A stretch of 64,000 nucleotides of DNA, taken from Candidatus Azotimanducaceae bacterium. GTDB lineage: Bacteria > Pseudomonadota > Gammaproteobacteria > Pseudomonadales > Azotimanducaceae. A program made the position numbers and the translations under genes. A model generated the notes under the pieces. The model was given only the letters and a program-made list of their open reading frames with translations. It was not told the DNA's origin and searched no databases. The stretch covers positions 2,041,464-2,105,463 of the forward strand of contig OZ251532.1 of assembly GCA_965243175.1 (NCBI GenBank), written 5' to 3'. Numbering within the stretch: position 1 is the stretch's first letter; each line of letters starts with the position of its first letter. Shown in pieces: positions 1,261 through 49,197 of this stretch.

Positions 1261-2382
1261 GTGTCCATGCGCGACAAGTCTAACGCAGCGGCGGAGCGAA
1301 GCGGTCTCGCGCCGCCGTGCTTCGCGGAACGGCTGCTCGCTTGGTGGGACGTGCATGGGCGCAAGAATCTGCCTTGGCAGAAGCAGCGCTCGCCGTATCG
1401 GGCGTGGGTTGCGGAAGTGATGCTGCAACAGACCCAGGTGAGCGTGGTGATCCCCTACTTCGAGCGGTTCGTGGCGCGGTTCCCGACTGTCGGCGCGTTG
1501 GCGGATGCCGAACTCGACGACGTGCTGCATCTGTGGAGCGGCCTCGGCTACTACGCCCGTGCTCGCAATCTGCATCGTGCAGCGGGAGTCGTCGTTCGGG
1601 AACATGGCGGGGCGTTGCCGAGGTCGGCAGAGGGCATCGCGGCGTTGCCCGGAGTCGGTCGTTCCACCGCTGCGGCCATTGCCGCCCAAGCCTACGGCGA
1701 ACGCGCCGCCATTCTGGACGGCAACGCGAAGCGCGTCCTCGCTCGGTGTTGGCGGGTGGCCGGCGCAGCGTCTTCGGCGGCGACCAACAAGGCGCTGTGG
1801 GAACTCGCGGAAGCCTGCACGCCAGCGGACCGCGTGGCCGACTACACGCAGGCCATCATGGACTTGGGCGCGACGGTGTGCGCGCGACGCAATCCGCGTT
1901 GCGGCGAATGCCCCATGGAGGACGCCTGCGCCGGGCGGGCCGAGGGCGATGCCGAGCGGTTTCCGATGCCCGCGGTGCGCCGCTCGAGGCGTTTGGAGCG
2001 GCGGCGCTTTTTCGTCTTGATCGACGCCCGGGGCGACTGCTTTCTGGAACGTCGTCCGCCGCATGGGATCTGGGGCGGGCTGTGGTCGCCGCCGGAGCGT
2101 TCCGCGTCCACATCGGCGGTGGAGTTTCTAACGGGCCTTGGCGGCGATGAGCGACTGGTGCGCCGAACGCGGGTGGCACCGTCCTTCAAGCATGGCTTCA
2201 CCCACTACGACTTGGACGTGCGGCCGGTTTATGTGTGGCTGAAAGCGCGGCCGGGGCTTGTGGGCGATCGCGAGGGAGCGTGGATCGATCCCGCCGATCA
2301 TCGACTTGGCCTTTCCGCTGTTGCGGCTAGACTCTTGGCCGCGGCCGCCACCTTCCGACTGGAGCCGAACGATGGAACGTAG
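1261..2382 (+). CDS. mutY: A/G-specific adenine DNA glycosylase
   Basis: LLAWWDVHGRKNLPWQ, PYRAWVAEVMLQQTQV, GLGYYARARNLH, PGVGRSTAAAI, and an Fe-S cluster loop CxxRNPRCGECP. Confidence 0.93.
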   Translation: MSMRDKSNAAAERSGLAPPCFAERLLAWWDVHGRKNLPWQKQRSPYRAWVAEVMLQQTQVSVVIPYFERFVARFPTVGALADAELDDVLHLWSGLGYYARARNLHRAAGVVVREHGGALPRSAEGIAALPGVGRSTAAAIAAQAYGERAAILDGNAKRVLARCWRVAGAASSAATNKALWELAEACTPADRVADYTQAIMDLGATVCARRNPRCGECPMEDACAGRAEGDAERFPMPAVRRSRRLERRRFFVLIDARGDCFLERRPPHGIWGGLWSPPERSASTSAVEFLTGLGGDERLVRRTRVAPSFKHGFTHYDLDVRPVYVWLKARPGLVGDREGAWIDPADHRLGLSAVAARLLAAAATFRLEPNDGT

Positions 2383-2780: not shown

Positions 2781-3617
2781 ATGAAAACGCAGCGCCAGTA
2801 CGAGATCAACGGCACCCGCGTTCGTCGTCCGGTTCGGCCCAGCGCCAAGGCCGACGACGGTCTGTATCGCTACGTGCCAGTGCCGCCCGTGGGCTACGAC
2901 GAAGACGGATACCCCGTTGAGGACGGCATGTCGCAGAACCGAGACCATCAGCGGCAGACCTCGCACTGGTGCAGCGCGCTCACGCTGCGCTACCCGAACG
3001 CGACGGTGTGTTCGGACCTGATCATGCCCTACGAACGCGGCGACAAGGAGAAGGTGGCGGTGCCGGACCTGTTGGTGGCGCTGAATGCGCCGCTGGATGT
3101 CCATCGGCGCTCCTACAAGCTCTGGGAGAACCCGACGCCGGACCTGGTGATGGAGATGATCTCGCCGGACAGCACTTGGAAGGACGATGTCGGATCGAAG
3201 TACCGCACCTACCAGATGCTCGGCATTCGCGAGTACTGGCTGTTCGATGCGACCGGCAAACGCCTAACCGCGCCGGTGGTCGGCTACCGGCTGTGCGGCA
3301 AGGTCTATCAGGAGATCTCGGAGACCGAAGGGCGGCTGGAGAGCGAAGTTCTGGGTCTCGACCTGTATGTGCGCAACGGCGAACTGCGATTCCACGACCC
3401 AGAGACGGGGAAGGATCTGACGACCCACGCAGAGTCCGAGGCCCAACGAGATACCGCTGAGCAACAAGCCCAAGACGCCAAACGAGAAGCCCAGAACGCC
3501 AGGCGAGAAGCCCAAGACGCCAGACGAGATGCCCAGTCCGCCGAACAACGAGCCCAGACCGCCGAAGACGAGGTGGAACGCCTGCGGGTGCTGCTCGAAC
3601 AGAAGGAATCCAAGTAG
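2781..3617 (+). CDS. Uma2-family (DUF820) PD-(D/E)XK endonuclease with a C-terminal coiled-coil tail
   Basis: PDLLVAL...PDLVMEMISP...K..Y...GIREYWLFD core, followed by LRFHDPETG and a heptad-repeat tail (AQDAKREAQNARREAQDARRDAQ). Confidence 0.8.
   Translation: MKTQRQYEINGTRVRRPVRPSAKADDGLYRYVPVPPVGYDEDGYPVEDGMSQNRDHQRQTSHWCSALTLRYPNATVCSDLIMPYERGDKEKVAVPDLLVALNAPLDVHRRSYKLWENPTPDLVMEMISPDSTWKDDVGSKYRTYQMLGIREYWLFDATGKRLTAPVVGYRLCGKVYQEISETEGRLESEVLGLDLYVRNGELRFHDPETGKDLTTHAESEAQRDTAEQQAQDAKREAQNARREAQDARRDAQSAEQRAQTAEDEVERLRVLLEQKESK
3466..3570 (+). repeat. About five imperfect 21-nt tandem repeats (unit like gaagcccaagacgccagacga) encoding the heptad tail of the Uma2 protein
   Basis: Direct reading of 3466-3570. 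Confidence 0.6.
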
Positions 3618-6163: not shown

Positions 6164-6996
6164 CTAGGGCGTGTTGACACTACTGCAGGGCATCGACGAT
6201 GAGCGCCAGATAGACGAACGAAGCGAAGACGACGTCCAGCTTGTCGTAGCGCGTGAATATCCGCCGGAACCTCTTCAGTCTCCCGAAGAGGCGCTCCACT
6301 TCGTTGCGGCGCCTGTAGATCCCCTTGTCGTAGTCCCACGGCTTCTTGCGGTTCTCCTTCGGCGGAACCACCGGCATCGCGCCCATCTCCTCCACCAGCG
6401 CCCGCGTCTCGTCGCCCTCGTACGCCTTGTCCATCGCCACGTTCTCCGCGGTCAGCGGAGTCGCCGCCAGCAGCTTCCTGCCCTCCGGCCTGTCTCCCGC
6501 CTGCCCGCCCGACAGCGAGAAGTTCACCGCCGTGCAGGCGTCCGCCGCGATCGCGTGGATCTTCGTCGTCCATCCCCCGCGCGACTTGCCGATGCTTTGC
6601 GCACCGTTTTTTTTAACGCCCCGGTCCCATCCGGATGCACCTTCACCAGCGTGCTGTCCAGCGACACCGTGTCCCCTTGGCCGCCGACCACCCCGAGCTC
6701 GCGCAACTCCTTGAAAATCGCTGCCATGACGCCCTTCTTCGACCACCGCTCCCAACGCCGGTACACCGTGTTCCACGGCCCGTAGCGCTCCGGCAGCGCG
6801 CGCCACTTGCACCCGTTCTCCAGCACGTAGAGCATCCCGTTGAGCTGCGTCAGCGGGTCGTGCTTCACGTTCCCCCGCGGCCGCGGCAGCACATGCTTGA
6901 TCTTCTCGAACTGCGACTCCGTGATCTCCATGACGACCTCCTTGTCGTCTCAAATCTCCACGCCAATGTACCACGCGTTATGTCAACACGCCCTAG
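6164..6996 (-). mobile_element. IS5-family insertion sequence (IS427/IS1031-like), about 0.83 kb
   Basis: Perfect 16-bp terminal inverted repeat: ctagggcgtgttgaca (6164-6179) and tgtcaacacgccctag (6981-6996). The outer CTAG could instead be a 4-bp target duplication. It encloses a two-frame transposase. Confidence 0.85.
6180..6931 (-). CDS. IS5-family transposase OrfAB, needs a -1 frameshift on an A8 run
   Basis: OrfA (6524-6931) reads MEITESQFEKIKHVL...GCKWRALPERYGPWNTVYRRWERW. OrfB frame (to 6180) reads ...GGWTTKIHAIAD...MDKAYEGDETR...RNEVERLFGRLKRFRRI. The frames join at the T8/A8 run 6607-6614 (GALKK|NGAQS). Confidence 0.85.
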
Positions 6997-19162: not shown

Positions 19163-19438
19163 ATGCTCAGCCAGACGCCCGGCGTGGTGAGCGGTGCCGT
19201 GGTGTTCACGGGTACGCGGGTTCCGGTGGAGATGTTGTTCGACCATCTGGCAGCCGGCGAACCGCTGGAGAGTTTCCTCTCTTCCTTCGACATCCCCCGA
19301 GAGCAGGCTGCCGCGGTGTTGCGGCTTGCCGGCGAGGTCCTGCGCGATGCGTCTCCTGAGCGGGCTGTTCTCAGGCGGCGTCGCCCGCCCGCAAGCCGCA
19401 GTCTACGAGACGTCCGCCAGTGCCACCCTGTCCAGTAG
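19163..19438 (+). CDS. DUF433-like small protein (antitoxin-like)
   Basis: GAVVFTGTRVPVEMLFDHLAAGEPLESFLSSFDIPREQAAAVLRLA matches the DUF433 pattern. The 3' end overlaps the convergent DAHP synthase gene by 36 nt. Confidence 0.55.
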   Translation: MLSQTPGVVSGAVVFTGTRVPVEMLFDHLAAGEPLESFLSSFDIPREQAAAVLRLAGEVLRDASPERAVLRRRRPPASRSLRDVRQCHPVQ

Positions 19439-20485
19439 CGGCTGGCGCAGTTTGTTCGCCAACCCTCGCAGGATCGCTTCCGTTTCCTCCCAGCCTACGC
19501 AGGCGTCCGTGATCGAGACGCCGTAGGCCAGGTCCTTTGCGGGGGCGAAGGGTTGGTTGCCGGGGCCGATGTTGCTCTCCACCATCAGGCCGACGATGGA
19601 GCGGTTGCCGGCGACGATTTGCTCCGCTACCGAGTCGGCGACGATGCCTTGGCGGCGGTGGTCCTTGTTGGCGTTGGCGTGGGAGCAGTCCACCATGACG
19701 TTGCTGTCGAGTCCGGCGTCCGTCAAGGCGTTTTCGCACCTTGCCACCGCTGCGGCGTCGTAGTTCGGGCCGCTGACGCCGCCGCGCAGCACGATGTGAG
19801 CGTTGCCGTTGCCGCGGGTGTGGATCATGGCGACCTGGCCTTTGCCGTTGATGCCGAGGAAGCGATGCGGGCTGGCGACGGACTTCATGGCGTTGACGGC
19901 GACGTCGAGGGCGCCGTCGGTGCCGTTCTTGAAGCCGACGATGGACGAAAGGCCGGACGCCATTTCGCGGTGGGTCTGCGATTCGGTGGTGCGGGCGCCG
20001 ATGGCGGACCAGGTGATGAGGTCTTGCAGGTACTGCGGCGTGATCGGGTCCAGCGCTTCGGTGGCGAGCGGCAGGCAGGATTCGGCGAGGTCGAGCAGGA
20101 GTTGGCGCGCCAAGCGGATGCCGCGTTCGATGTCGAAGGTGTCGTCGAGGGAGGGGTCGTTGATGAGGCCCTTCCAGCCCACCGTGGTGCGCGGCTTCTC
20201 GAAGTACGCCCGCATGACGATGTAGAGGGTCTCCGCGGTGTCGTCGGCGAGACGGCGCAGGCGGGTGGCGTAGTCCCGCGCCGCGTAGGGATCGTGGATG
20301 GAGCACGGGCCGATCACCACGAGCAGCCGATGGTCGCGGCGCGCCAGGATGTCCGTCACCTTGCGCCTGGACGCGGCGACGAACTTCAGCACGTCCTCGG
20401 AAGCGGGCAACGCGCCCTTCACCTCCGCTGGCGTCGGCAGCACGGCCTGCGCCGTCACGTTGAGATTCTCGGTCGCAGTGGCCAT
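19403..20485 (-). CDS. Class I (AroF/G/H-type) 3-deoxy-7-phosphoheptulonate synthase
   Basis: RLLVVIGPCSIHDP, YFEKPRTTVGWKGLINDP, ITPQY, GARTTESQTHREMASGLS, GFKNGTDG, SITDACVGWEETE. Confidence 0.95.
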   Translation of the reverse strand: MATATENLNVTAQAVLPTPAEVKGALPASEDVLKFVAASRRKVTDILARRDHRLLVVIGPCSIHDPYAARDYATRLRRLADDTAETLYIVMRAYFEKPRTTVGWKGLINDPSLDDTFDIERGIRLARQLLLDLAESCLPLATEALDPITPQYLQDLITWSAIGARTTESQTHREMASGLSSIVGFKNGTDGALDVAVNAMKSVASPHRFLGINGKGQVAMIHTRGNGNAHIVLRGGVSGPNYDAAAVARCENALTDAGLDSNVMVDCSHANANKDHRRQGIVADSVAEQIVAGNRSIVGLMVESNIGPGNQPFAPAKDLAYGVSITDACVGWEETEAILRGLANKLRQPLLDRVALADVS

Positions 20486-20898
20486 GTGTAGCTCCTTCGC
20501 TGCATGTTGGATTCCGATGGCTGGTCGCCATTCGGACTGAGCGAAGGGCGACCGTGGACGCCCTCGAAGCGAGTGCGCCGCTAGGTGCTAAACCAGTAGC
20601 GGAAGCGCGGCACGGGTGCCGCGGGGTTGACCGAACGCATCGCTTCGAACATGGCGGGGCATTGTCTACGGCGAGGGCGGAAAGTCAAGCGCTGGTTTCT
20701 CGTCCGACGAGAACGAGCCTGACGAACGGTGCCCGTGCGCGGCCGAGTTGGGAGCTGCCAGTTGAGACCAGACGATGGTTGCGCGAGTCGGGAGGTCGGG
20801 CAAGCATGATGGGGCGAGGAGCAGGGCGAGGATCCGGTGATGCAGATGCGCCCCTTGTGCTAGGATCGCGCTCACCCTAGTCGGAGCGGGGCCGGGAG

Positions 20899-21324
20899 AT
20901 GGGCTATGCCGCAGACTTTCCCAGTGCTCACGTCCGGCACTGGCAAGATGCCGAGCTGCTGGCACGGGTCGAACGCTGGGCCAACGCCGACCAGCTCTAC
21001 GGCTTCAGTGCGGAGTGTGGTCTCAAGGCGGTGATGGTGGCGAACGGCATGCCCGTTGCGCCTGGCAGCGGCTCCCCAACGAAACGGCGCCACAAGCAGC
21101 ATATACAGAATCTCTGGGGCACCTTCCGCTCGTTCGTCAGCGGCAGGCCTGCCGCGAGCCTGCTGCACCACCTGCCGCAGTCGAATCCGTTCACCCAGTG
21201 GACTCAGGACAACCGCTACGCGGCCAGCCGCCACTTCAACGCCGCAGCGGTCGCCCCGCACCGAGAGGCGGCGCAGCAGGTCCGGCGGTTCTACTTGCGC
21301 CTCAAAGTGAGCGGCTATGTCTAA
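20899..21324 (+). CDS. HEPN-like small protein (Rx5H motif)
   Basis: N-terminal helix AHVRHWQDAELL, LYGFSAECGLKAV, and NRYAASRH (R106-x5-H112). Its end overlaps the next gene by 8 nt. Confidence 0.55.
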   Translation: MGYAADFPSAHVRHWQDAELLARVERWANADQLYGFSAECGLKAVMVANGMPVAPGSGSPTKRRHKQHIQNLWGTFRSFVSGRPAASLLHHLPQSNPFTQWTQDNRYAASRHFNAAAVAPHREAAQQVRRFYLRLKVSGYV

Positions 21325-22591
21325 GGTATTCAACAGGTTCGAGTCCGTGTTGCCGATGGTGGAAGACACGCTTCGCGACCCGATGCACCCAGCGGTGCCA
21401 TGCGTCTATGTGGTACGGGACGTTTACGGCAAGGTGCGGCTGGCGGTCGCGGAATCCGTCGAGAATGACAACAGAGCCCACACGTGGCTGAAGGAAGAAG
21501 CGAAGACGCTTCAAGAACGGCTAGGCGCACGCGCCTTCCCGCCGGACGAGGCCATCTTGTTCCTGGACGACGACCTGCTGCAAGAACTCGATCGAGACAG
21601 CCGCGAGTTGCTGCCGAGCGTGCGCTTTGTCGACCGTCTGGTCACCGGCGCCGGCTGGTGGAACGTTGACGATACGGAGTCCGAGACGCCCATCTACACC
21701 CTCTATTCCGTGAAAGGAGGCGTCGGCCGCTCCACGACCGCGGCAGTGCTGGCTCGGCATCTGGCACGGCGCGGCGAGCATGTGCTGGTGGTGGACTTGG
21801 ACCTCGAGTCGCCCGGCATTTCGTCTGCGATGTTGCCGTCGGCGCTGCAACCGCGGTATGGCGTTGTCGATTGGTTTGCCGAAGACCTGGTTGACCAAGG
21901 AGACCATGTGGTCGAAGACATGATCGCCCGGCCGAGCTGGCACCAGAACTTTCGCGGCGACGTTGCCATCGTGCCGGCGCACGGCTTCGAGCCGCGGGAA
22001 TATCTGGCCAAGCTCGGTCGCGTCTATCTGGATGCGGACGTTCGGTGGACGCGACGATTGAAGCGAATGCTGCAACAGATCCGCGAGATCGCGCAGCCCA
22101 GCGTCGTGCTGCTGGAGAGCCGCAGCGGACTGCACGACATCGCCGCGGCCACCGTGACCGATCTGCAAGCGCATGTGCTCCTTTTCGGTACAGACTCGGC
22201 GACGAGCTGGCAAGACTACGAAATACTCTTTGGGCACTGGCGCGAACTTGGCCTCGCCGGCCGCATCAGGGAACGGCTGTCCATCGTCTCCAGCTTGACG
22301 CCAGACATCGACACCGAAGCATACGTCCAGAGCTTCCGCGAGCGGGCGTGGACGCTCTTCCAAGATCACTTGTACGATACGGTCGAGTCCACCGAGGCGC
22401 CTTACGGTTTCACCTTCGACATGCAGGGGGAGGGCGTACCCCACGATCCGCTGCCCATCCAATGGACGCGGGGGTTCGCCGCCGGCGCGTCGCTGCACGA
22501 CATTGAAGACAGCACGGTAGAGCAGGCATATGGTCGGTTCCTAAGGCGATTTGACGAGCTCCACGGCAACGGCGGCGGTGCGGGCCCGTGA
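21317..22591 (+). CDS. ParA/MinD-like ATPase with a deviant KGGVGR Walker A, plus an N-terminal extra domain of about 120 aa
   Basis: IYTLYSVKGGVGRSTTAAVLARHLARRGEHVLVVDLDLESPG, then VVLLESRSGLHD. Confidence 0.75.
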   Translation: MSKVFNRFESVLPMVEDTLRDPMHPAVPCVYVVRDVYGKVRLAVAESVENDNRAHTWLKEEAKTLQERLGARAFPPDEAILFLDDDLLQELDRDSRELLPSVRFVDRLVTGAGWWNVDDTESETPIYTLYSVKGGVGRSTTAAVLARHLARRGEHVLVVDLDLESPGISSAMLPSALQPRYGVVDWFAEDLVDQGDHVVEDMIARPSWHQNFRGDVAIVPAHGFEPREYLAKLGRVYLDADVRWTRRLKRMLQQIREIAQPSVVLLESRSGLHDIAAATVTDLQAHVLLFGTDSATSWQDYEILFGHWRELGLAGRIRERLSIVSSLTPDIDTEAYVQSFRERAWTLFQDHLYDTVESTEAPYGFTFDMQGEGVPHDPLPIQWTRGFAAGASLHDIEDSTVEQAYGRFLRRFDELHGNGGGAGP

Positions 22592-24042
22592 GCGATCACA
22601 AGGCCGCGATGCGCCAGGCGCTTGAGGGGTTGCCGGCCGAAACCAGCTACGGCGAGCCGCCGGCACCGGCGAGCGTCTACTTCCCGCAGTCGCACTTGAA
22701 AGCCATGCACCCGGATGTCGCCGTGGTCACGGGCATGCGCGGCGCCGGCAAGACGTTCTGGTCCGCCGCCTTGCAGGTAGCCACTATTCGTGAGTTGATC
22801 GGTACGCGCTACGAACGCACGGCGATCAACGACAAGACCGTGGTGCGAACCGGGTTCGGCGCTCGCCCTGCCATCGATGAGTATCCCAGCAAGGATGTGC
22901 TCGCCGACCTTCTGAACCAAAGAAGCGACGCACGGCTTACCTGGCGAACCGTTCAGGCCTGGCAGCTGGCACCGCAGGATCATCCGCTGCGACAAGAGGA
23001 GAGCTGGCGCAGGCGGACGACCTACGTTGAAGGAAATCCAGAACAAATTGATCGACTGTTCGCTGAGCGCGATGCGAAGCTGGCCCAGGAAGGCCGCCAT
23101 TTCGTCGTGATCTACGACGCCTTGGATAGAAGTGCGGACGACTGGCGAACGATGTACCAACTCGTCCGCGGTCTGTTGCAAACAGCGCTGGACATGCGCG
23201 GCTATCGGCGCATTCGCGCAAAGGTGTTTCTGCGTACCGATCAGTTCAATCCAGCGGCGATTGGCGACTTCCCGGACGCGTCCAAGGTGCTCGCATCCGC
23301 GGTGGAACTGAGCTGGCCGCGGCATGAACTGTATGGGCTGCTTTGGCACCTGCTCGGCAACGCGGAGCGGCCGCCAGCGGCGCTGAACGATCTGATCGGC
23401 GAAGTGCGCTCGAATCCGGCGGCGGCAAGCGGTTGTGGCACATGGCTGGTGCCGACCTCCTTCGTGTTCGACGAGGACCGCCAACGCAAGGCCTTCCACA
23501 CCGTCGCCGGCCAGTGGATGGGCACGGATCGTCGCCGAGGGTTTCCCTACACGTGGATTCCCAACCACCTCGGCGACACCGAGGGCAAGGTGAGCCCGAG
23601 ATCGTTCATAGCCGCCTTGAGAACCGCGGCGGTAGACAGCCGCCAGAGGCATCCCCAGCACGAGTACGCATTGCACTACGACAGCATCAAGCGAGGCGTG
23701 CAGAAGGCATCCGGCATCCGCGTTGCCGAACTTCGGGAAGACTACCCGTGGGTGGACCGACTGCTGAAGGACCTGCAAGGCGGCACTGTACCTTGCCCGT
23801 TCGGGGACATTCGGTCGCGCTGGACGGACAGACGGACCCTGACCCGTTTGCGCGACGAGATCGCGCAGCAGGAGGTGAAGCTGCCGCCAAGCCGCATCGA
23901 CGAGGGTGCCGAGGGCGTCCGCGCCGATCTTGAGTCGCTCAGCATCTTCCAGCGCGTACACGACGGCCGCGTGAACATCCCAGACGTATTTCGCGTCGGC
24001 TACGGGCTGGGGCGACGCGGCGGCGTTCCGCCAGTTCGCTAG
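22588..24042 (+). CDS. P-loop NTPase of unknown function (possibly the Sll1717-like family)
   Basis: Walker A VAVVTGMRGAGKTFW and Walker B HFVVIYDALDRS. GTGA start/stop overlap with the upstream gene. Confidence 0.7.
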   Translation: MSDHKAAMRQALEGLPAETSYGEPPAPASVYFPQSHLKAMHPDVAVVTGMRGAGKTFWSAALQVATIRELIGTRYERTAINDKTVVRTGFGARPAIDEYPSKDVLADLLNQRSDARLTWRTVQAWQLAPQDHPLRQEESWRRRTTYVEGNPEQIDRLFAERDAKLAQEGRHFVVIYDALDRSADDWRTMYQLVRGLLQTALDMRGYRRIRAKVFLRTDQFNPAAIGDFPDASKVLASAVELSWPRHELYGLLWHLLGNAERPPAALNDLIGEVRSNPAAASGCGTWLVPTSFVFDEDRQRKAFHTVAGQWMGTDRRRGFPYTWIPNHLGDTEGKVSPRSFIAALRTAAVDSRQRHPQHEYALHYDSIKRGVQKASGIRVAELREDYPWVDRLLKDLQGGTVPCPFGDIRSRWTDRRTLTRLRDEIAQQEVKLPPSRIDEGAEGVRADLESLSIFQRVHDGRVNIPDVFRVGYGLGRRGGVPPVR

Positions 24043-27191: not shown

Positions 27192-28265
27192 TCACGAGCG
27201 CTTCTCGAAGTCGATGCGCGGGTCGACGAAGGTGTACACCATGTCGCCGATCAGCTGCATCACGAGGCCGATCAGCGTGAAGCAGAACAGCGTACCGAAG
27301 AACACCGGATAGTCGCGCTTCACCACCGCTTCGTAGCCGAGCCGCCCGATGCCATCCAAGGAGAAGATCACCTCGATGAGCAGCGCCGCGGTGAACAGCA
27401 AGCCGACGAACGCCGCCGGAAAGCCAGCGATCACGATCAGCATCGCGTTGCGGAACACGTGGCCGAACAGAACGCGCCTCTCGGTGAGTCCCTTGGCGCG
27501 GGCGGTGAGCACGAACTGCTTGTTGATCTCTTCGAGAAAGCTATTCTTCGTCAGCATCGTCAGCGTGGCGAAGCCGCCGATGGTCATGGCCGTGAGCGGC
27601 AGCGCCAAGTGCCAAAGGTAGTCGCCGATCTTGCCGAACAGCGAGAGGTCGTCGAAGTTCTCCGAAAACAGGCCACGCATCGGAAACCAGTCGAAATACG
27701 ATCCGCCGGCGAAGAAGACGATCAGCAGCACCGCGAACAGAAAGCCGGGAATCGCGTAGGCGGTGAACACGAGGGCGGACGTCCACACGTCGAAGCGTTC
27801 GCCGTCGCGCACCGCCTTGGCGACGCCGAGCGGAATGGAAATGCTGTAGATGAGGAACAAGGACCACAGCCCCAGCGAAACGGAAACCGGCAGCGCGTCG
27901 AGCACGAGTTCCATCACCGCCCGGTCCTGGAAGTAGCTGTCGCCGAAGTCCAGCCGAAGGTAGTTCCAGATCATCAATGCGAAGCGTTCGTGCGCTGGCC
28001 TGTCGAATCCGAATTCCTTTTCCAAGCGGGCGACGAACTCCGGATCCAATCCCTCGCTGCCGGTGTAGCCGGTCTGCGTGGTCGGCCCCATCGTCGCCGC
28101 GGAGGAAATCGACGCGGTGGTGGAAACGCCCAAGCCCGACGCCTGGATGATCGCCTGTTCCACCGGCCCGCCCGGCGCGAACTGCACGATGACGAAGTTG
28201 ATGACCATGATGCCGAACAACGTCGGCACGATCAGGAACAAGCGGCGAAGAAGGTAGCGTCCCAT
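27192..28265 (-). CDS. yejB: ABC peptide-importer permease, YejB-like
   Basis: [37 protein letters not shown]...[25 protein letters not shown]...VDPRIDFE is collinear with E. coli YejB. Confidence 0.88.
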
Positions 28266-33137: not shown

Positions 33138-33533
33138 ATGTGGCTCTCGTCCCTCACGGAACAGCAGCGCGACGCCCTGCTGGGCCTGGCGCACAACGTC
33201 GTCGTTTCGGACGGCCTCCTCGACCCCAACGAGGAGGACATGATGGACCAGTTCAAGCGCGAGATGGCGGTGAAGCCGGACGTCGTCTCGGACTACCTGG
33301 AACTGGACGGCATCGGCGCCGTCTTCGACTCCCGCAAGTCGCGCATTGTCGCCATCCTGAACCTCCTGCACCTCTCCTACGCGGACGGCGCCTTCGAGAT
33401 CGAGGAGGAATGCCTGCTGAAGGAAGTGGCCCGCTCCTTCGGCTTCGACGACGACGACTTCCGCGGCATGGACAGCTGGGTGAAGCGCCTAGTGGCGCTG
33501 GAACAGGAGGCGCGACGGCTGATGGCGTCTTGA
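33138..33533 (+). CDS. TerB-like (tellurite-resistance TerB / DjlA-N fold) protein
   Basis: Two copies of the x-DG-x..x-EE pattern: LAHNVVVSDGLLDPNEEDMM and LLHLSYADGAFEIEEECLL. Confidence 0.6.
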   Translation: MWLSSLTEQQRDALLGLAHNVVVSDGLLDPNEEDMMDQFKREMAVKPDVVSDYLELDGIGAVFDSRKSRIVAILNLLHLSYADGAFEIEEECLLKEVARSFGFDDDDFRGMDSWVKRLVALEQEARRLMAS

Positions 33534-33617: not shown

Positions 33618-33830
33618 GTGAGCCGGGAAGGGGCGATAATCCAAAAGATTCGCGCCGCCGTTAAAGCGGGACGGTTGAAGGAGCCGTTTTCGTCGAAAGA
33701 CGTGATCCAAGCGGGAATCCGGTATGCAGCCATTAGTTCGGGGACGTTCCTCCCAAAGCACCGAGTCGGCAATGGCAGCACCACGGAACACTTCGTTCAG
33801 GTCGCACGGGGTCTGTACAGATTGGCTTAA
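33618..33830 (+). CDS. Small hypothetical protein (70 aa)
   Basis: GTG start with SD gggaggg; ...GTFLPKHRVGNGSTTEHFVQVARGLYRL. Confidence 0.45.
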   Translation: MSREGAIIQKIRAAVKAGRLKEPFSSKDVIQAGIRYAAISSGTFLPKHRVGNGSTTEHFVQVARGLYRLA

Positions 33831-48390: not shown

Positions 48391-49197
48391 TCACTTCAGT
48401 GCCAGCGCATTGCTAATCTGCTTAGCAGCCCGCTCTTGCTTGCGCTTCTCGACCTCAGGCACCTGGGAATAGCGAGGTCCGAGGTGATCGCCTCCCTTGT
48501 CGTTAAACGGCGGCGACAAGATTTTGATCAGTATTGTCTCCATCGCCTTAATCGCTTCATCCATGTCCAAGCTATCCCGGTTGGACACGAGCTCTTGGTT
48601 CGTATCGACGGAGTGGAGACCGAACCAAGAGAACCTGTCGAACCATTTTCGCCGCTCGTGTCTCGTGTGGTCGTACAGCCTATCGTACAAGCCAGAGTCC
48701 GTCGTACGCCCCACATAGATGACGTTGGGCCATTCGTACAAGACGTACACGCCGATTTGGTCCGCAAAGTTGACTTCGATGTTGTTGTCGCCGTACCTTC
48801 CCGGGCTGCCAAGCAACTCACGTTCGCCCCACACAACTTGATCGCGATGCCAGCTCATTCCGTAACAAGGAATCAGCAGGTCACCGGCGGCAGACGGTCG
48901 AGTTACACGGTCTTTGTTTGGTATATCTGTGCGGTGCCAAAGACCTGCTTCATTGAAGACCTCTTTGTCTTTCAAATACTGAAGAGCGCTGTTAATTTGG
49001 TCCCGGTCGAGTGACCGATGGTCGCTGCTGCGACCGAGCCACTCGCGGATTTGCTTCTGCGACAAGGCCCCTTCAGAGAGGGCTTCTAGGACGAGCTCTG
49101 TGTTCTTCAATGATCTTGGCCTCGGGTTCTCTAGCTCAGCGTCATACGCAGGACTTGGGACTGGATCGCCCGAGTCGCGGTGCCTAGACAGTGGCAA
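48391..49197 (-). CDS. GIY-YIG-like nuclease domain protein with an N-terminal wHTH-like region, on a low-G+C segment
   Basis: IGVYVLYEWPNVIYVGRTTDSGLYDRLYDH (GIY..YIG spacing), a later R, and E in AMETILIKIL..FN. Confidence 0.6.
   Translation of the reverse strand: MPLSRHRDSGDPVPSPAYDAELENPRPRSLKNTELVLEALSEGALSQKQIREWLGRSSDHRSLDRDQINSALQYLKDKEVFNEAGLWHRTDIPNKDRVTRPSAAGDLLIPCYGMSWHRDQVVWGERELLGSPGRYGDNNIEVNFADQIGVYVLYEWPNVIYVGRTTDSGLYDRLYDHTRHERRKWFDRFSWFGLHSVDTNQELVSNRDSLDMDEAIKAMETILIKILSPPFNDKGGDHLGPRYSQVPEVEKRKQERAAKQISNALALK

Follow-up and report, generated by a model that had tools for sequence, protein, structure and literature searches.

What is the function of a tightly overlapping three-gene operon at positions 20,899 to 24,042 of a 64,000-nucleotide stretch of DNA (hereafter the window) from a Candidatus Azotimanducaceae bacterium (contig OZ251532.1)? 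From the sequence letters alone, the operon had been described as a candidate uncharacterised defence or conflict system made up of a HEPN-like protein (gene 1), a ParA-like ATPase with a KGGVGR variant of the Walker A motif (gene 2) and a second P-loop NTPase (gene 3). Following up this original prediction computationally, we find that the operon is, by profile matches of all three of its proteins, a member of PDC-M28, a catalogued phage defence candidate. We put about even confidence in the reading that PDC-M28 is a mobile, self-contained system of sensor, switch and effector that defends its host against phages or other mobile elements, a function inferred from the parts and contexts described below.

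Identity of the operon and its three proteins

All three genes lie on the + strand, gene 1 (PDC-M28A) at 20899..21324 (141 aa, ATG start), gene 2 (PDC-M28B) at 21317..22591 (424 aa, ATG start) and gene 3 (PDC-M28C) at 22588..24042 (484 aa, GTG start), with co-directional overlaps of 8 nt between genes 1 and 2 and of 4 nt between genes 2 and 3. The open reading frames (ORFs), coordinates, strand and overlaps that had first been reported were all borne out in the ORF listing, and the motifs NRYAASRH, AHVRHWQDAELL, AECGLKA, KGGVGRST, VLVVDLDLESPG, GMRGAGKT and VVIYDALD were all found in the translations. These are real genes and not chance ORFs, because full-length homologues of genes 1, 2 and 3 form 390, 1768 and 1987 clusters at 90% identity, the GC content at the three codon positions follows a coding pattern, and dN/dS measured against a sister genome is 0.16–0.41; the gene 2 product of this window has no exact match on record. 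The overlapping arrangement suggests translational coupling and a protein complex. Presumably, the operon promoter lies in the 413-nt intergenic region (20486..20898) between gene 1 and a divergent gene for 3-deoxy-D-arabino-heptulosonate 7-phosphate (DAHP) synthase. A consensus scan found no sigma-70-like site on the + strand of this region, the promoter and terminator scan being uninformative, and the region shows only ~94% identity over 320 nt to that of the sister genome described below.

Scanning with the hidden Markov models (HMMs) of PADLOC, a check that had been proposed from the outset, matched gene 1 to PDLC04558 (PDC-M28A, E 3.2e-47), gene 2 to PDLC04559 (PDC-M28B, E 5.2e-131) and gene 3 to PDLC04561 (PDC-M28C, E 2e-173), in each case covering nearly the whole profile. 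The genes stand in A-B-C order, adjacent and all on the + strand, which is the arrangement of a PDC-M28 locus. PDC-M28 belongs to a set of 145 phage defence candidates (PDCs), there called untested, that were derived by ‘guilt by embedding’, that is, as cassettes inside BREX, DISARM or type I restriction–modification systems (Payne, Hughes, Fineran, Jackson; bioRxiv 10.1101/2024.01.29.577857). The supplementary table of that study lists it as CAS_00115, with three families, the entry ‘Assign as candidate PDC-M28’ and a first-column value of 121, which we read as the occurrence count (bioRxiv 10.1101/2024.01.29.577857), and the name and its HMMs have been part of PADLOC-DB since v2. A full-text search for PDC-M28, KGGVGR and Sll1717 found no paper, and a 2026 survey of BREX does not describe the PDC-M28 cassette. 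The word ‘uncharacterised’ of the original prediction holds in that the literature searched contains no functional test, but not in that the system is already catalogued. To the catalogue entry, our analysis adds the link of gene 1 to AbiV and its true conserved residues, the ORC/Cdc6/BrxC fold of gene 3, the invariance of the arginine P-loop in gene 2, views of the triad embedded in BREX type 2 (BREX-2) operons, natural knockouts and an elevated evolutionary rate.

In its AlphaFold2 model (pLDDT 92, pTM 0.88), the gene 1 product is all-helical, with helices at residues 7–23, 27–48, 69–91 and 115–138 and a beta-bridge insert (49–68) between helices 2 and 3. A profile search (E <= 0.001) gathered a family of 1,014 clusters at 50% identity, nearly all of them standalone proteins of ~140 aa. 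When 150 diverse representatives of this family were compared with Pfam, 48 matched PF18728 (HEPN_AbiV), six matched generic HEPN and at most two matched any other family, all of the HEPN matches lying below the gathering score (best HEPN_AbiV match 23.9 bits against 27.1). Because fold matches to minimal HEPN proteins, whose statistics are given further on, and the recurrent HEPN_AbiV matches point the same way, the two taken together place gene 1 by prediction in the HEPN superfamily, nearest to the AbiV abortive-infection clade. A profile search of PDB sequences with gene 1 returned no HEPN match and a single chance match to cyclophilin (E 0.011), and a fold search of viral structures returned nothing meaningful.

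The HEPN likeness had originally been read from an Rx5H motif, R106-Y-A-A-S-R-H112 (21214..21234, + strand). While the likeness itself is supported by the fold matches, weak as these are, and by the AbiV-type profile matches, the motif fails as a HEPN signature: R106 and Y107 are present in 96% and 95% of the family, but H112 in only 17%. The histidine is a feature of the local clade, being found in 49 of 59 near relatives (83%) as against 17% of the 150 representatives, and it is lost in plasmid-borne copies of gene 1; an Rx4-6H motif of any kind occurs in 26 of 130 family members. A canonical HEPN RNase active site cannot be assumed, because neither Rx4-6H nor H112 is conserved. What the family does conserve is a different set of residues, namely R13 (98%), H14 (94%), D17 (96%), E39 (99%), C40 (99%), K43 (97%), H68 (99%), W101 (96%), R106, Y107 and H121 (85%), and the alignment suggests that this constellation forms either a ligand pocket or an active site of a non-canonical kind.

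One variant bears on the role of the first gene. A protein on a separate contig (P0447 on L106, 434–1711) fuses a Fic/DOC domain to a gene 1 domain that matches HEPN_AbiV (E 5e-5), and is followed, with an 11-nt overlap, by a KGGVGR-type gene 2 homologue (1701–2786), the contig ending before any gene 3 position. Because a toxin-type domain is fused there, the variant fits the idea that the first slot of the operon is the effector slot. Two other database hits were set aside. A 140-aa family member from Candidatus Palauibacter (P0114) carries the label ‘SAM-dependent methyltransferase’ at NCBI and UniRef, which, given a predicted all-helical structure with no methyltransferase fold, is almost certainly a misannotation, and a 1,396-aa repetitive helicase-like protein (P0484) was a spurious match of the gene 1 profile.

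Gene 2 matches NF047398, ‘KGGVGR-motif variant AAA ATPase’, over aa 124–309 with 176 bits against a cut-off of 90; this family and NF047389, the two families that the original prediction had brought up, do exist in NCBIfam. Pfam finds CbiA, ParA and AAA_31 in the P-loop region only, a profile search of the PDB aligns only aa 123–183, to ArsA, Soj, Mrp, BcsQ and MinD, and the scores of gene 2 for the ParA, MinD, RepA and BcsQ equivalogs are far below their cut-offs (ParA_partition 31.8 against 180). The protein comprises a conserved N-terminal domain (~aa 1–120), a SIMIBI core and a C-terminal region of ~110 aa. Its deviant Walker A motif, K133-G-G-V-G-R138 (21713..21730, + strand), keeps the signature lysine K133 and replaces the P-loop lysine with arginine. 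KGGVGR is invariant in members that are 28–41% identical to the gene 2 of the window, and sequences of the near clade conserve position 138 to at least 90%, with cysteine in one of 40 aligned sequences (P0212). The same 28–41% identical members also share D160-x-D162-L-E-x-P-G, an acidic Walker B residue followed by S/A-R-x-G, K232, R235 and, in the N-terminal domain, VRDxxG. By this pattern of conservation, R138 is a selected, family-defining feature. In P-loop chemistry, exchanging the lysine for arginine probably alters, slows or abolishes hydrolysis, from which we infer that gene 2 is probably a nucleotide-dependent switch rather than a motor.

The original prediction had called gene 3 a second P-loop NTPase, which its Walker motifs support but which is too general for the fold that we observe. 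The AlphaFold2 model (pLDDT 89.8, pTM 0.89) was matched by Foldseek to archaeal Cdc6, Orc1 and Orc2 (E 6e-6 to 2e-4), to BrxC of an Acinetobacter BREX system (4e-5 to 1e-3) and to TnsC (9e-4), with a probability of 1.00 for Cdc6, Orc1, Orc2 and BrxC, and the matches span the AAA+ core, the lid and a C-terminal helical or winged-helix part. At the level of sequence, a profile search of PDB sequences found no match, and Pfam reports only a weak AAA_16. The match to NF047389, ‘P-loop ATPase, Sll1717 family’, scores 52.7 bits, below the cut-off of 75, and is partial (gene 3 aa 148–417 to profile positions 168–396 of 454), making gene 3 a relative of the Sll1717 family and not a member by the NCBI criterion. 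All eight residues of the Walker A motif, G49-M-R-G-A-G-K55-T56 (22732..22755, + strand), are invariant in 46 homologues, as are D177, L179, D180 and R181 in and next to the Walker B motif D177-A-L-D180 (23116..23127, + strand); conservation extends over the whole length, including an invariant C-terminal tail, RVNIPDVFRVGYGLGRRGGV. BrxC and BrxD are themselves ATPases of the ORC/Cdc6 clade, and BrxC is described as anchoring the BREX complex (PMC12839542). Because of the fold matches and the membership of BrxC and BrxD in this clade, gene 3 is best described, on the evidence of its model, as an ORC/Cdc6/BrxC-like AAA+ ATPase with a helical lid. Its C-terminal region is a probable winged-helix domain in the model, and it plausibly binds DNA.

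Distribution and evolution of the triad

To place the operon among genomes, we scanned one genome per species for gene 2; an alignment-based scan found relatives in 344 species genomes (a scan of reference genomes with the single protein gave no match), and the best 80 loci were analysed. Genes 1, 2 and 3 occur in the same order and tightly packed at 69 of the 80 loci, with gene 1 undetected at nine and gene 3 at two, at least some of the ‘missing’ gene 1 copies being divergent or truncated and not absent. That the triad is conserved as a unit, and not in core-genome settings alone, was among the expectations set out at the start, and both hold: the neighbours are variable, the contexts are non-core and the triad is mobile. 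The hosts span at least 10 phyla and include Gammaproteobacteria, Alphaproteobacteria, Acidobacteriota (Vicinamibacterales, Bryobacterales), Latescibacterota, Binatia, Spirochaetia, Chloroflexota, Gemmatimonadota (Longimicrobiales), Rhodothermales and Entotheonella. Because protein identity across these phyla is 48–71%, the triad has spread by horizontal transfer. The nearest triads (the 80 loci and the ERZ samples of L081–L093) come nearly all from metagenome-assembled genomes (MAGs) whose lineages are found together in marine sponge microbiomes (for Entotheonella, Latescibacterota, Vicinamibacterales and others, cf. PMC8941161), and the degree of cross-phylum identity suggests a habitat-wide horizontal spread. 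One Rhodothermales MAG (OY760427.1) holds two divergent whole triads, ~1 Mb apart (L058 and L068).

Of the 144 proteins that flank the triad at these loci, most are metabolic enzymes, and no Pfam family is represented more than seven times; ~4 of the 144 are encoded by defence genes, namely those for HEC-01/AbiL/AriA-like ABC ATPases, and BREX components are absent from the top neighbour families across the 80 loci. Plasmids of cultured bacteria provide a different view. A homologue of gene 3 is present in 23 plasmid records, of which we examined 11 contexts, one of them (a Ralstonia megaplasmid) lacking annotation, leaving 10 annotated contexts; eight of these carry the whole triad, gene 1 included in all eight. 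On three of the 10, the triad lies inside a BREX-2 operon, in the same orientation and at differing insertion points: in Sphaerotilus, the order is pglX, triad, DUF6079, pglZ, brxD; in Streptomyces, it is pglW, triad, pglX; and in Thiodictyon, it is pglW, pglX, triad, pglY, pglZ, brxD. On three further plasmids, the triad directly follows an integrase, with a TIR-domain gene and a GNAT/DUF1778 toxin–antitoxin pair adjoining it in Enterobacter, toxin–antitoxin modules and IS66 nearby in Paraburkholderia, and a HEPN-domain gene and repC nearby in Agrobacterium. When phage genomes were searched by tblastn for gene 3, no homologue turned up. Two Streptomyces plasmids (L101, L102) encode gene 3-like proteins at 77–79% coverage, with the C-terminal part missing, and one of these copies lies beside conjugation genes; because both stand there with neither gene 1 nor gene 2, an Sll1717-like ATPase also exists outside the triad.

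Comparison with a sister genome (L105), which has the same synteny as the window, allowed us to examine how the triad evolves. The flanking genes are 98.3–99.9% identical in DNA and 99–100% in protein, as against 95.5–97.1% and 92–97% for the triad. In counts after Nei and Gojobori, the ratio of nonsynonymous to synonymous changes per site (pN/pS) is 0.22 for the triad and 0.05 for the flanks (Fisher odds ratio 5.0, p = 9e-6), with 0.41 for gene 1, 0.21 for gene 2 and 0.16 for gene 3; synonymous divergence (dS) is ~0.083 in the triad and ~0.033 in the flanks, about 2.4 times higher in the triad. The GC content at third codon positions (GC3), at 0.77–0.82, also lies below that of the neighbours (0.88–0.92). 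These comparisons indicate genes that are constrained, and because of this constraint functional, yet faster-evolving than the backbone and with a partly separate history, a pattern of fast but constrained evolution that is typical of immune genes.

Recent inactivating alleles of each gene, hit singly, were also observed. Gene 1 is 5'-truncated in one lineage, seen on four contigs from three samples (L081–L084), with genes 2 and 3 intact; L088 carries a 14-bp deletion that shifts the frame of gene 2, and in L091 an insertion sequence (IS) splits gene 3, in both cases with gene 1 intact and with the remaining triad at least 99.9% identical to intact copies. Because single knockouts of each gene exist in natural populations, these alleles argue, if indirectly, that no gene of the triad is a constitutive toxin restrained by another, and they argue that the triad is dispensable under some conditions.

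Mechanism and rival explanations

If PDC-M28 does work as sensor, switch and effector, gene 3 would be the ATP-dependent sensor, detecting either invader DNA or a replication intermediate, and a gene 2 dimer would serve as a slowly hydrolysing or non-hydrolysing switch or scaffold that links this sensor to gene 1 through its N- and C-terminal domains. Gene 1 would then deliver the output and halt either the invader or the infected cell, probably by acting on RNA or translation, through a non-canonical active site formed by R13, H14, D17, E39, C40, K43, H68, R106 and Y107 and not by Rx4-6H. AbiV-like HEPN proteins are thought to act on RNA or translation. A bolder version, which we advance only tentatively, is that gene 1 represents a large branch of HEPN proteins without the classical histidine, in which the alternative, fixed constellation could mark a new enzymatic activity or a ligand-gated output, and that PDC-M28 is a mechanistically new class of defence. 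Such a class would have its HEPN protein driven by a ParA-type NTPase with an obligatory arginine P-loop together with an ORC/Cdc6-like sensor, and would have been carried by horizontal transfer into at least 10 phyla and, it appears, through much of the sponge-symbiont community.

Several observations weigh against the sensor, switch and effector account. The literature searched holds no experiment on PDC-M28, and two follow-up studies of other PDCs gave mixed results, with some PDCs failing. Most chromosomal copies of the triad, this one included, stand alone amid housekeeping genes and not in defence islands. It is by analogy that these proteins are cast as sensor and effector. For gene 1, minimal HEPN proteins (1ufb, 1o3u, 1wol, 2hsb and 2q00) make up all of the top five fold matches in the PDB, and these matches are statistically weak (E 0.15–1.1, TM 0.5–0.6); the gene 1 product of the window matches no Pfam HEPN model, nor any other Pfam family; and the canonical HEPN histidine is absent in ~80% of the family alignment, leaving RNase activity uncertain. 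For gene 2, the PDB profile search found no detectable relatives of the N- and C-terminal regions, and the arginine P-loop may mean that the protein performs no ATP hydrolysis at all.

The main rival, which we consider unlikely, keeps the defence function and makes gene 1 a non-catalytic adaptor or regulator, that is, a degenerate HEPN protein, with the output coming from the ATPases, through ORC/ParA-like binding or occlusion of invader DNA, or from recruited host or fused effectors such as Fic. It can draw on the loss of the classical histidine from most of the gene 1 family, on the fusion of a genuine toxin-type domain (Fic/DOC) to a gene 1 domain in one variant, on the four contigs from three samples that keep genes 2 and 3 intact beside a truncated gene 1, and on BrxC-like ATPases, which are DNA-binding scaffolds in BREX (PMC12839542). 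The nine polar gene 1 residues conserved at 94–99%, however, resemble an active site or a ligand pocket more than an adaptor surface, and gene 1 is kept at 69 of the 80 loci and in all eight plasmid triads. We give little credence to a role as a maintenance module for replication, partition or stability, which would serve the mobile element and not the host. ParA-type and ORC/Cdc6-type folds are those of classic partition and initiation proteins, and the 23 plasmid occurrences, some beside integrases or repC, would suit such a module; yet most copies are solitary in chromosomes amid metabolic genes and free of other element genes, the triad is also embedded in BREX-2 operons, the P-loop lysine is replaced by arginine, unlike in working partition ATPases, and gene 1 is HEPN-like and not a centromere binder of the ParB, ribbon-helix-helix (RHH) or helix-turn-helix (HTH) type. 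Nor did any repeat or centromere-like feature come to light, although no search was aimed at one.

Equally improbable, in our judgement, is that the triad is an accessory or backup module dependent on BREX-2, its solitary copies being orphans or remnants. Its position inside BREX-2 in the same orientation in three of the 10 annotated plasmid contexts and the fold that gene 3 shares with BrxC would agree with this, and standalone HEPN modules are common ‘backup effectors’ in BREX loci (PMC12839542). However, pglX, pglZ, pglY/brxC, pglW and brxD are all missing among the 41 other proteins of the window in a PADLOC and Pfam scan, which gave only a weak BrxP match (3e-6), and the top neighbour families of the 80 loci are likewise free of BREX components. 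Solitary copies are, moreover, under purifying selection (dN/dS 0.16–0.41), the insertion point varies by host, and unrelated toxin–antitoxin genes are embedded in the same manner. Hardly credible to us is a toxin–antitoxin or addiction module that has gene 1 as a constitutive HEPN toxin and gene 2, gene 3 or both as the antitoxin: the minimal HEPN fold matches are indeed toxins of HEPN-MNT modules, and plasmid copies do lie near other toxin–antitoxin genes, but the gene 2 frameshift and the IS disruption of gene 3, each beside an intact gene 1, should then be lethal, and two large NTPases would be atypical antitoxins.

Should PDC-M28 prove protective against phages or plasmids, it would be a defence system of unusual make-up, joining an ORC/Cdc6-like ATPase and an arginine-P-loop ParA-like protein to an AbiV-like HEPN protein that lacks the classical catalytic histidine. 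The non-canonical active site of gene 1 would predict that H112 is dispensable and that R106, Y107, H68, E39 and C40 are required, and the copy on the Enterobacter asburiae IncF plasmid NZ_CP063442 (78224–81560) offers a triad suited to a standard host. Immune genes in dense symbiont communities are expected to be gained and lost rapidly, and this agrees both with the spread of the triad across phyla, among lineages typical of sponge microbiomes, and with how frequently it has been inactivated of late. Because PADLOC already detects the locus, the immediate value for annotation is modest.

Surroundings in the window and comparison with known systems

The triad is flanked by the DAHP synthase gene (19403–20485, − strand) and by a gene with AAA-ATPase_like and PDDEXK_9 domains (PF09820/PF08011; 24107–25966, − strand), beyond which lie ATP-binding cassette (ABC) permease and binding-protein genes. 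These are the DAHP synthase, nuclease-domain and ABC neighbours that the original prediction had named, but the accessory pocket that it had seen here is not a defence-rich setting: no defence island is present, and the other proteins of the window are mostly housekeeping, such as HisB, MreB, NhaB and MutY, the exceptions being a Uma2-family gene, transposase fragments and the PDDEXK_9 gene. The last of these was considered as a part of the system and rejected; it accompanies the triad at only one or two of the 80 other loci (L019 and, weakly, L064), and therefore stands outside the system. Compared with the sister genome, it differs by 1 nt in 1,860, and the ABC permease gene at 27192–28265 likewise by 1 nt, while the genes between and around the two differ by 1–1.7%, a mosaic of divergence that suggests recent recombination tracts.

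Further features of the window were recorded in passing. A small gene of the antitoxin-like DUF433 family (~19163–19438, + strand), called as 91 aa in the sister genome, runs into the DAHP synthase gene, with which it is convergent, at the 3' end of the latter; no partner toxin gene is evident. A Uma2-family ‘putative restriction endonuclease’ (2781–3617, + strand) matches the PADLOC single-gene candidate PDC-S03 (E 3.7e-13), and by Pfam count the window holds a second Uma2 protein. The PADLOC match ‘REase_II type II nicking endonuclease’ at 1261–2382 (+ strand, E 1e-34) is a false positive for defence, the protein being MutY (HhH-GPD and NUDIX_4). An IS4/5-family transposase fragment (DUF4096; 6524–6931, − strand) and, elsewhere in the window, a DDE_Tnp_1_assoc protein were also found, both being traces of mobile elements amid an otherwise housekeeping region. 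A 268-aa ORF at 48391–49197 (− strand) has a GC3 of 0.66, against a window median of 0.85, a local GC content of 0.57 and no Pfam or PADLOC match, and is probably foreign DNA. A small TerB-domain protein (33138–33533, + strand) adjoins two other short ORFs, one of which (33618–33830) has an atypical GC3 of 0.66.

Among systems with known members, AbiV, the lactococcal abortive-infection HEPN protein, is the nearest to gene 1, which has a predicted all-helical bundle, family matches to PF18728 and a defence-associated context. AbiV acts as a single gene, whereas gene 1 always comes with two NTPases. In type II/VII HEPN-MNT modules, the minimal HEPN proteins are the best structural matches of gene 1, and the Fic (AMPylase-type) fusion loosely recalls, in our reading, MNT, which AMPylates HEPN; the triad differs in having no MNT partner and in not conserving the catalytic histidine, and its natural knockouts contradict a toxin–antitoxin logic. 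With ParA, MinD, Soj, ArsA and Mrp, SIMIBI ATPases whose deviant Walker A motif reads KGGxGK[ST], gene 2 has in common the signature lysine and the glycine-rich loop, besides a motif like the DxD of switch I and the acidic Walker B residue, but its P-loop lysine is arginine, the similarity covers ~40–60 residues, it carries additional N- and C-terminal regions, and the triad, unlike ParA-type systems, includes neither ParB nor a centromere partner.

Gene 3 resembles BrxC/PglY and Orc1/Cdc6 in its predicted fold and its intact Walker A and B motifs, and differs from BrxC, Orc1 and Cdc6 in showing no detectable sequence similarity to them and in possessing a family-specific, invariant C-terminal tail. 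BrxC has a coiled-coil extension of ~250–500 residues (PMC12839542), for which the much shorter gene 3 product, at 484 aa, has no room, and gene 3 stands here outside any methyltransferase/PglZ system. To PDC-M28 itself, the operon corresponds in its three proteins, their order and their strand, with no structural difference; what sets the copy in this window apart from the cassettes by which PDC-M28 was defined is that it is solitary in the chromosome and not embedded in another system.

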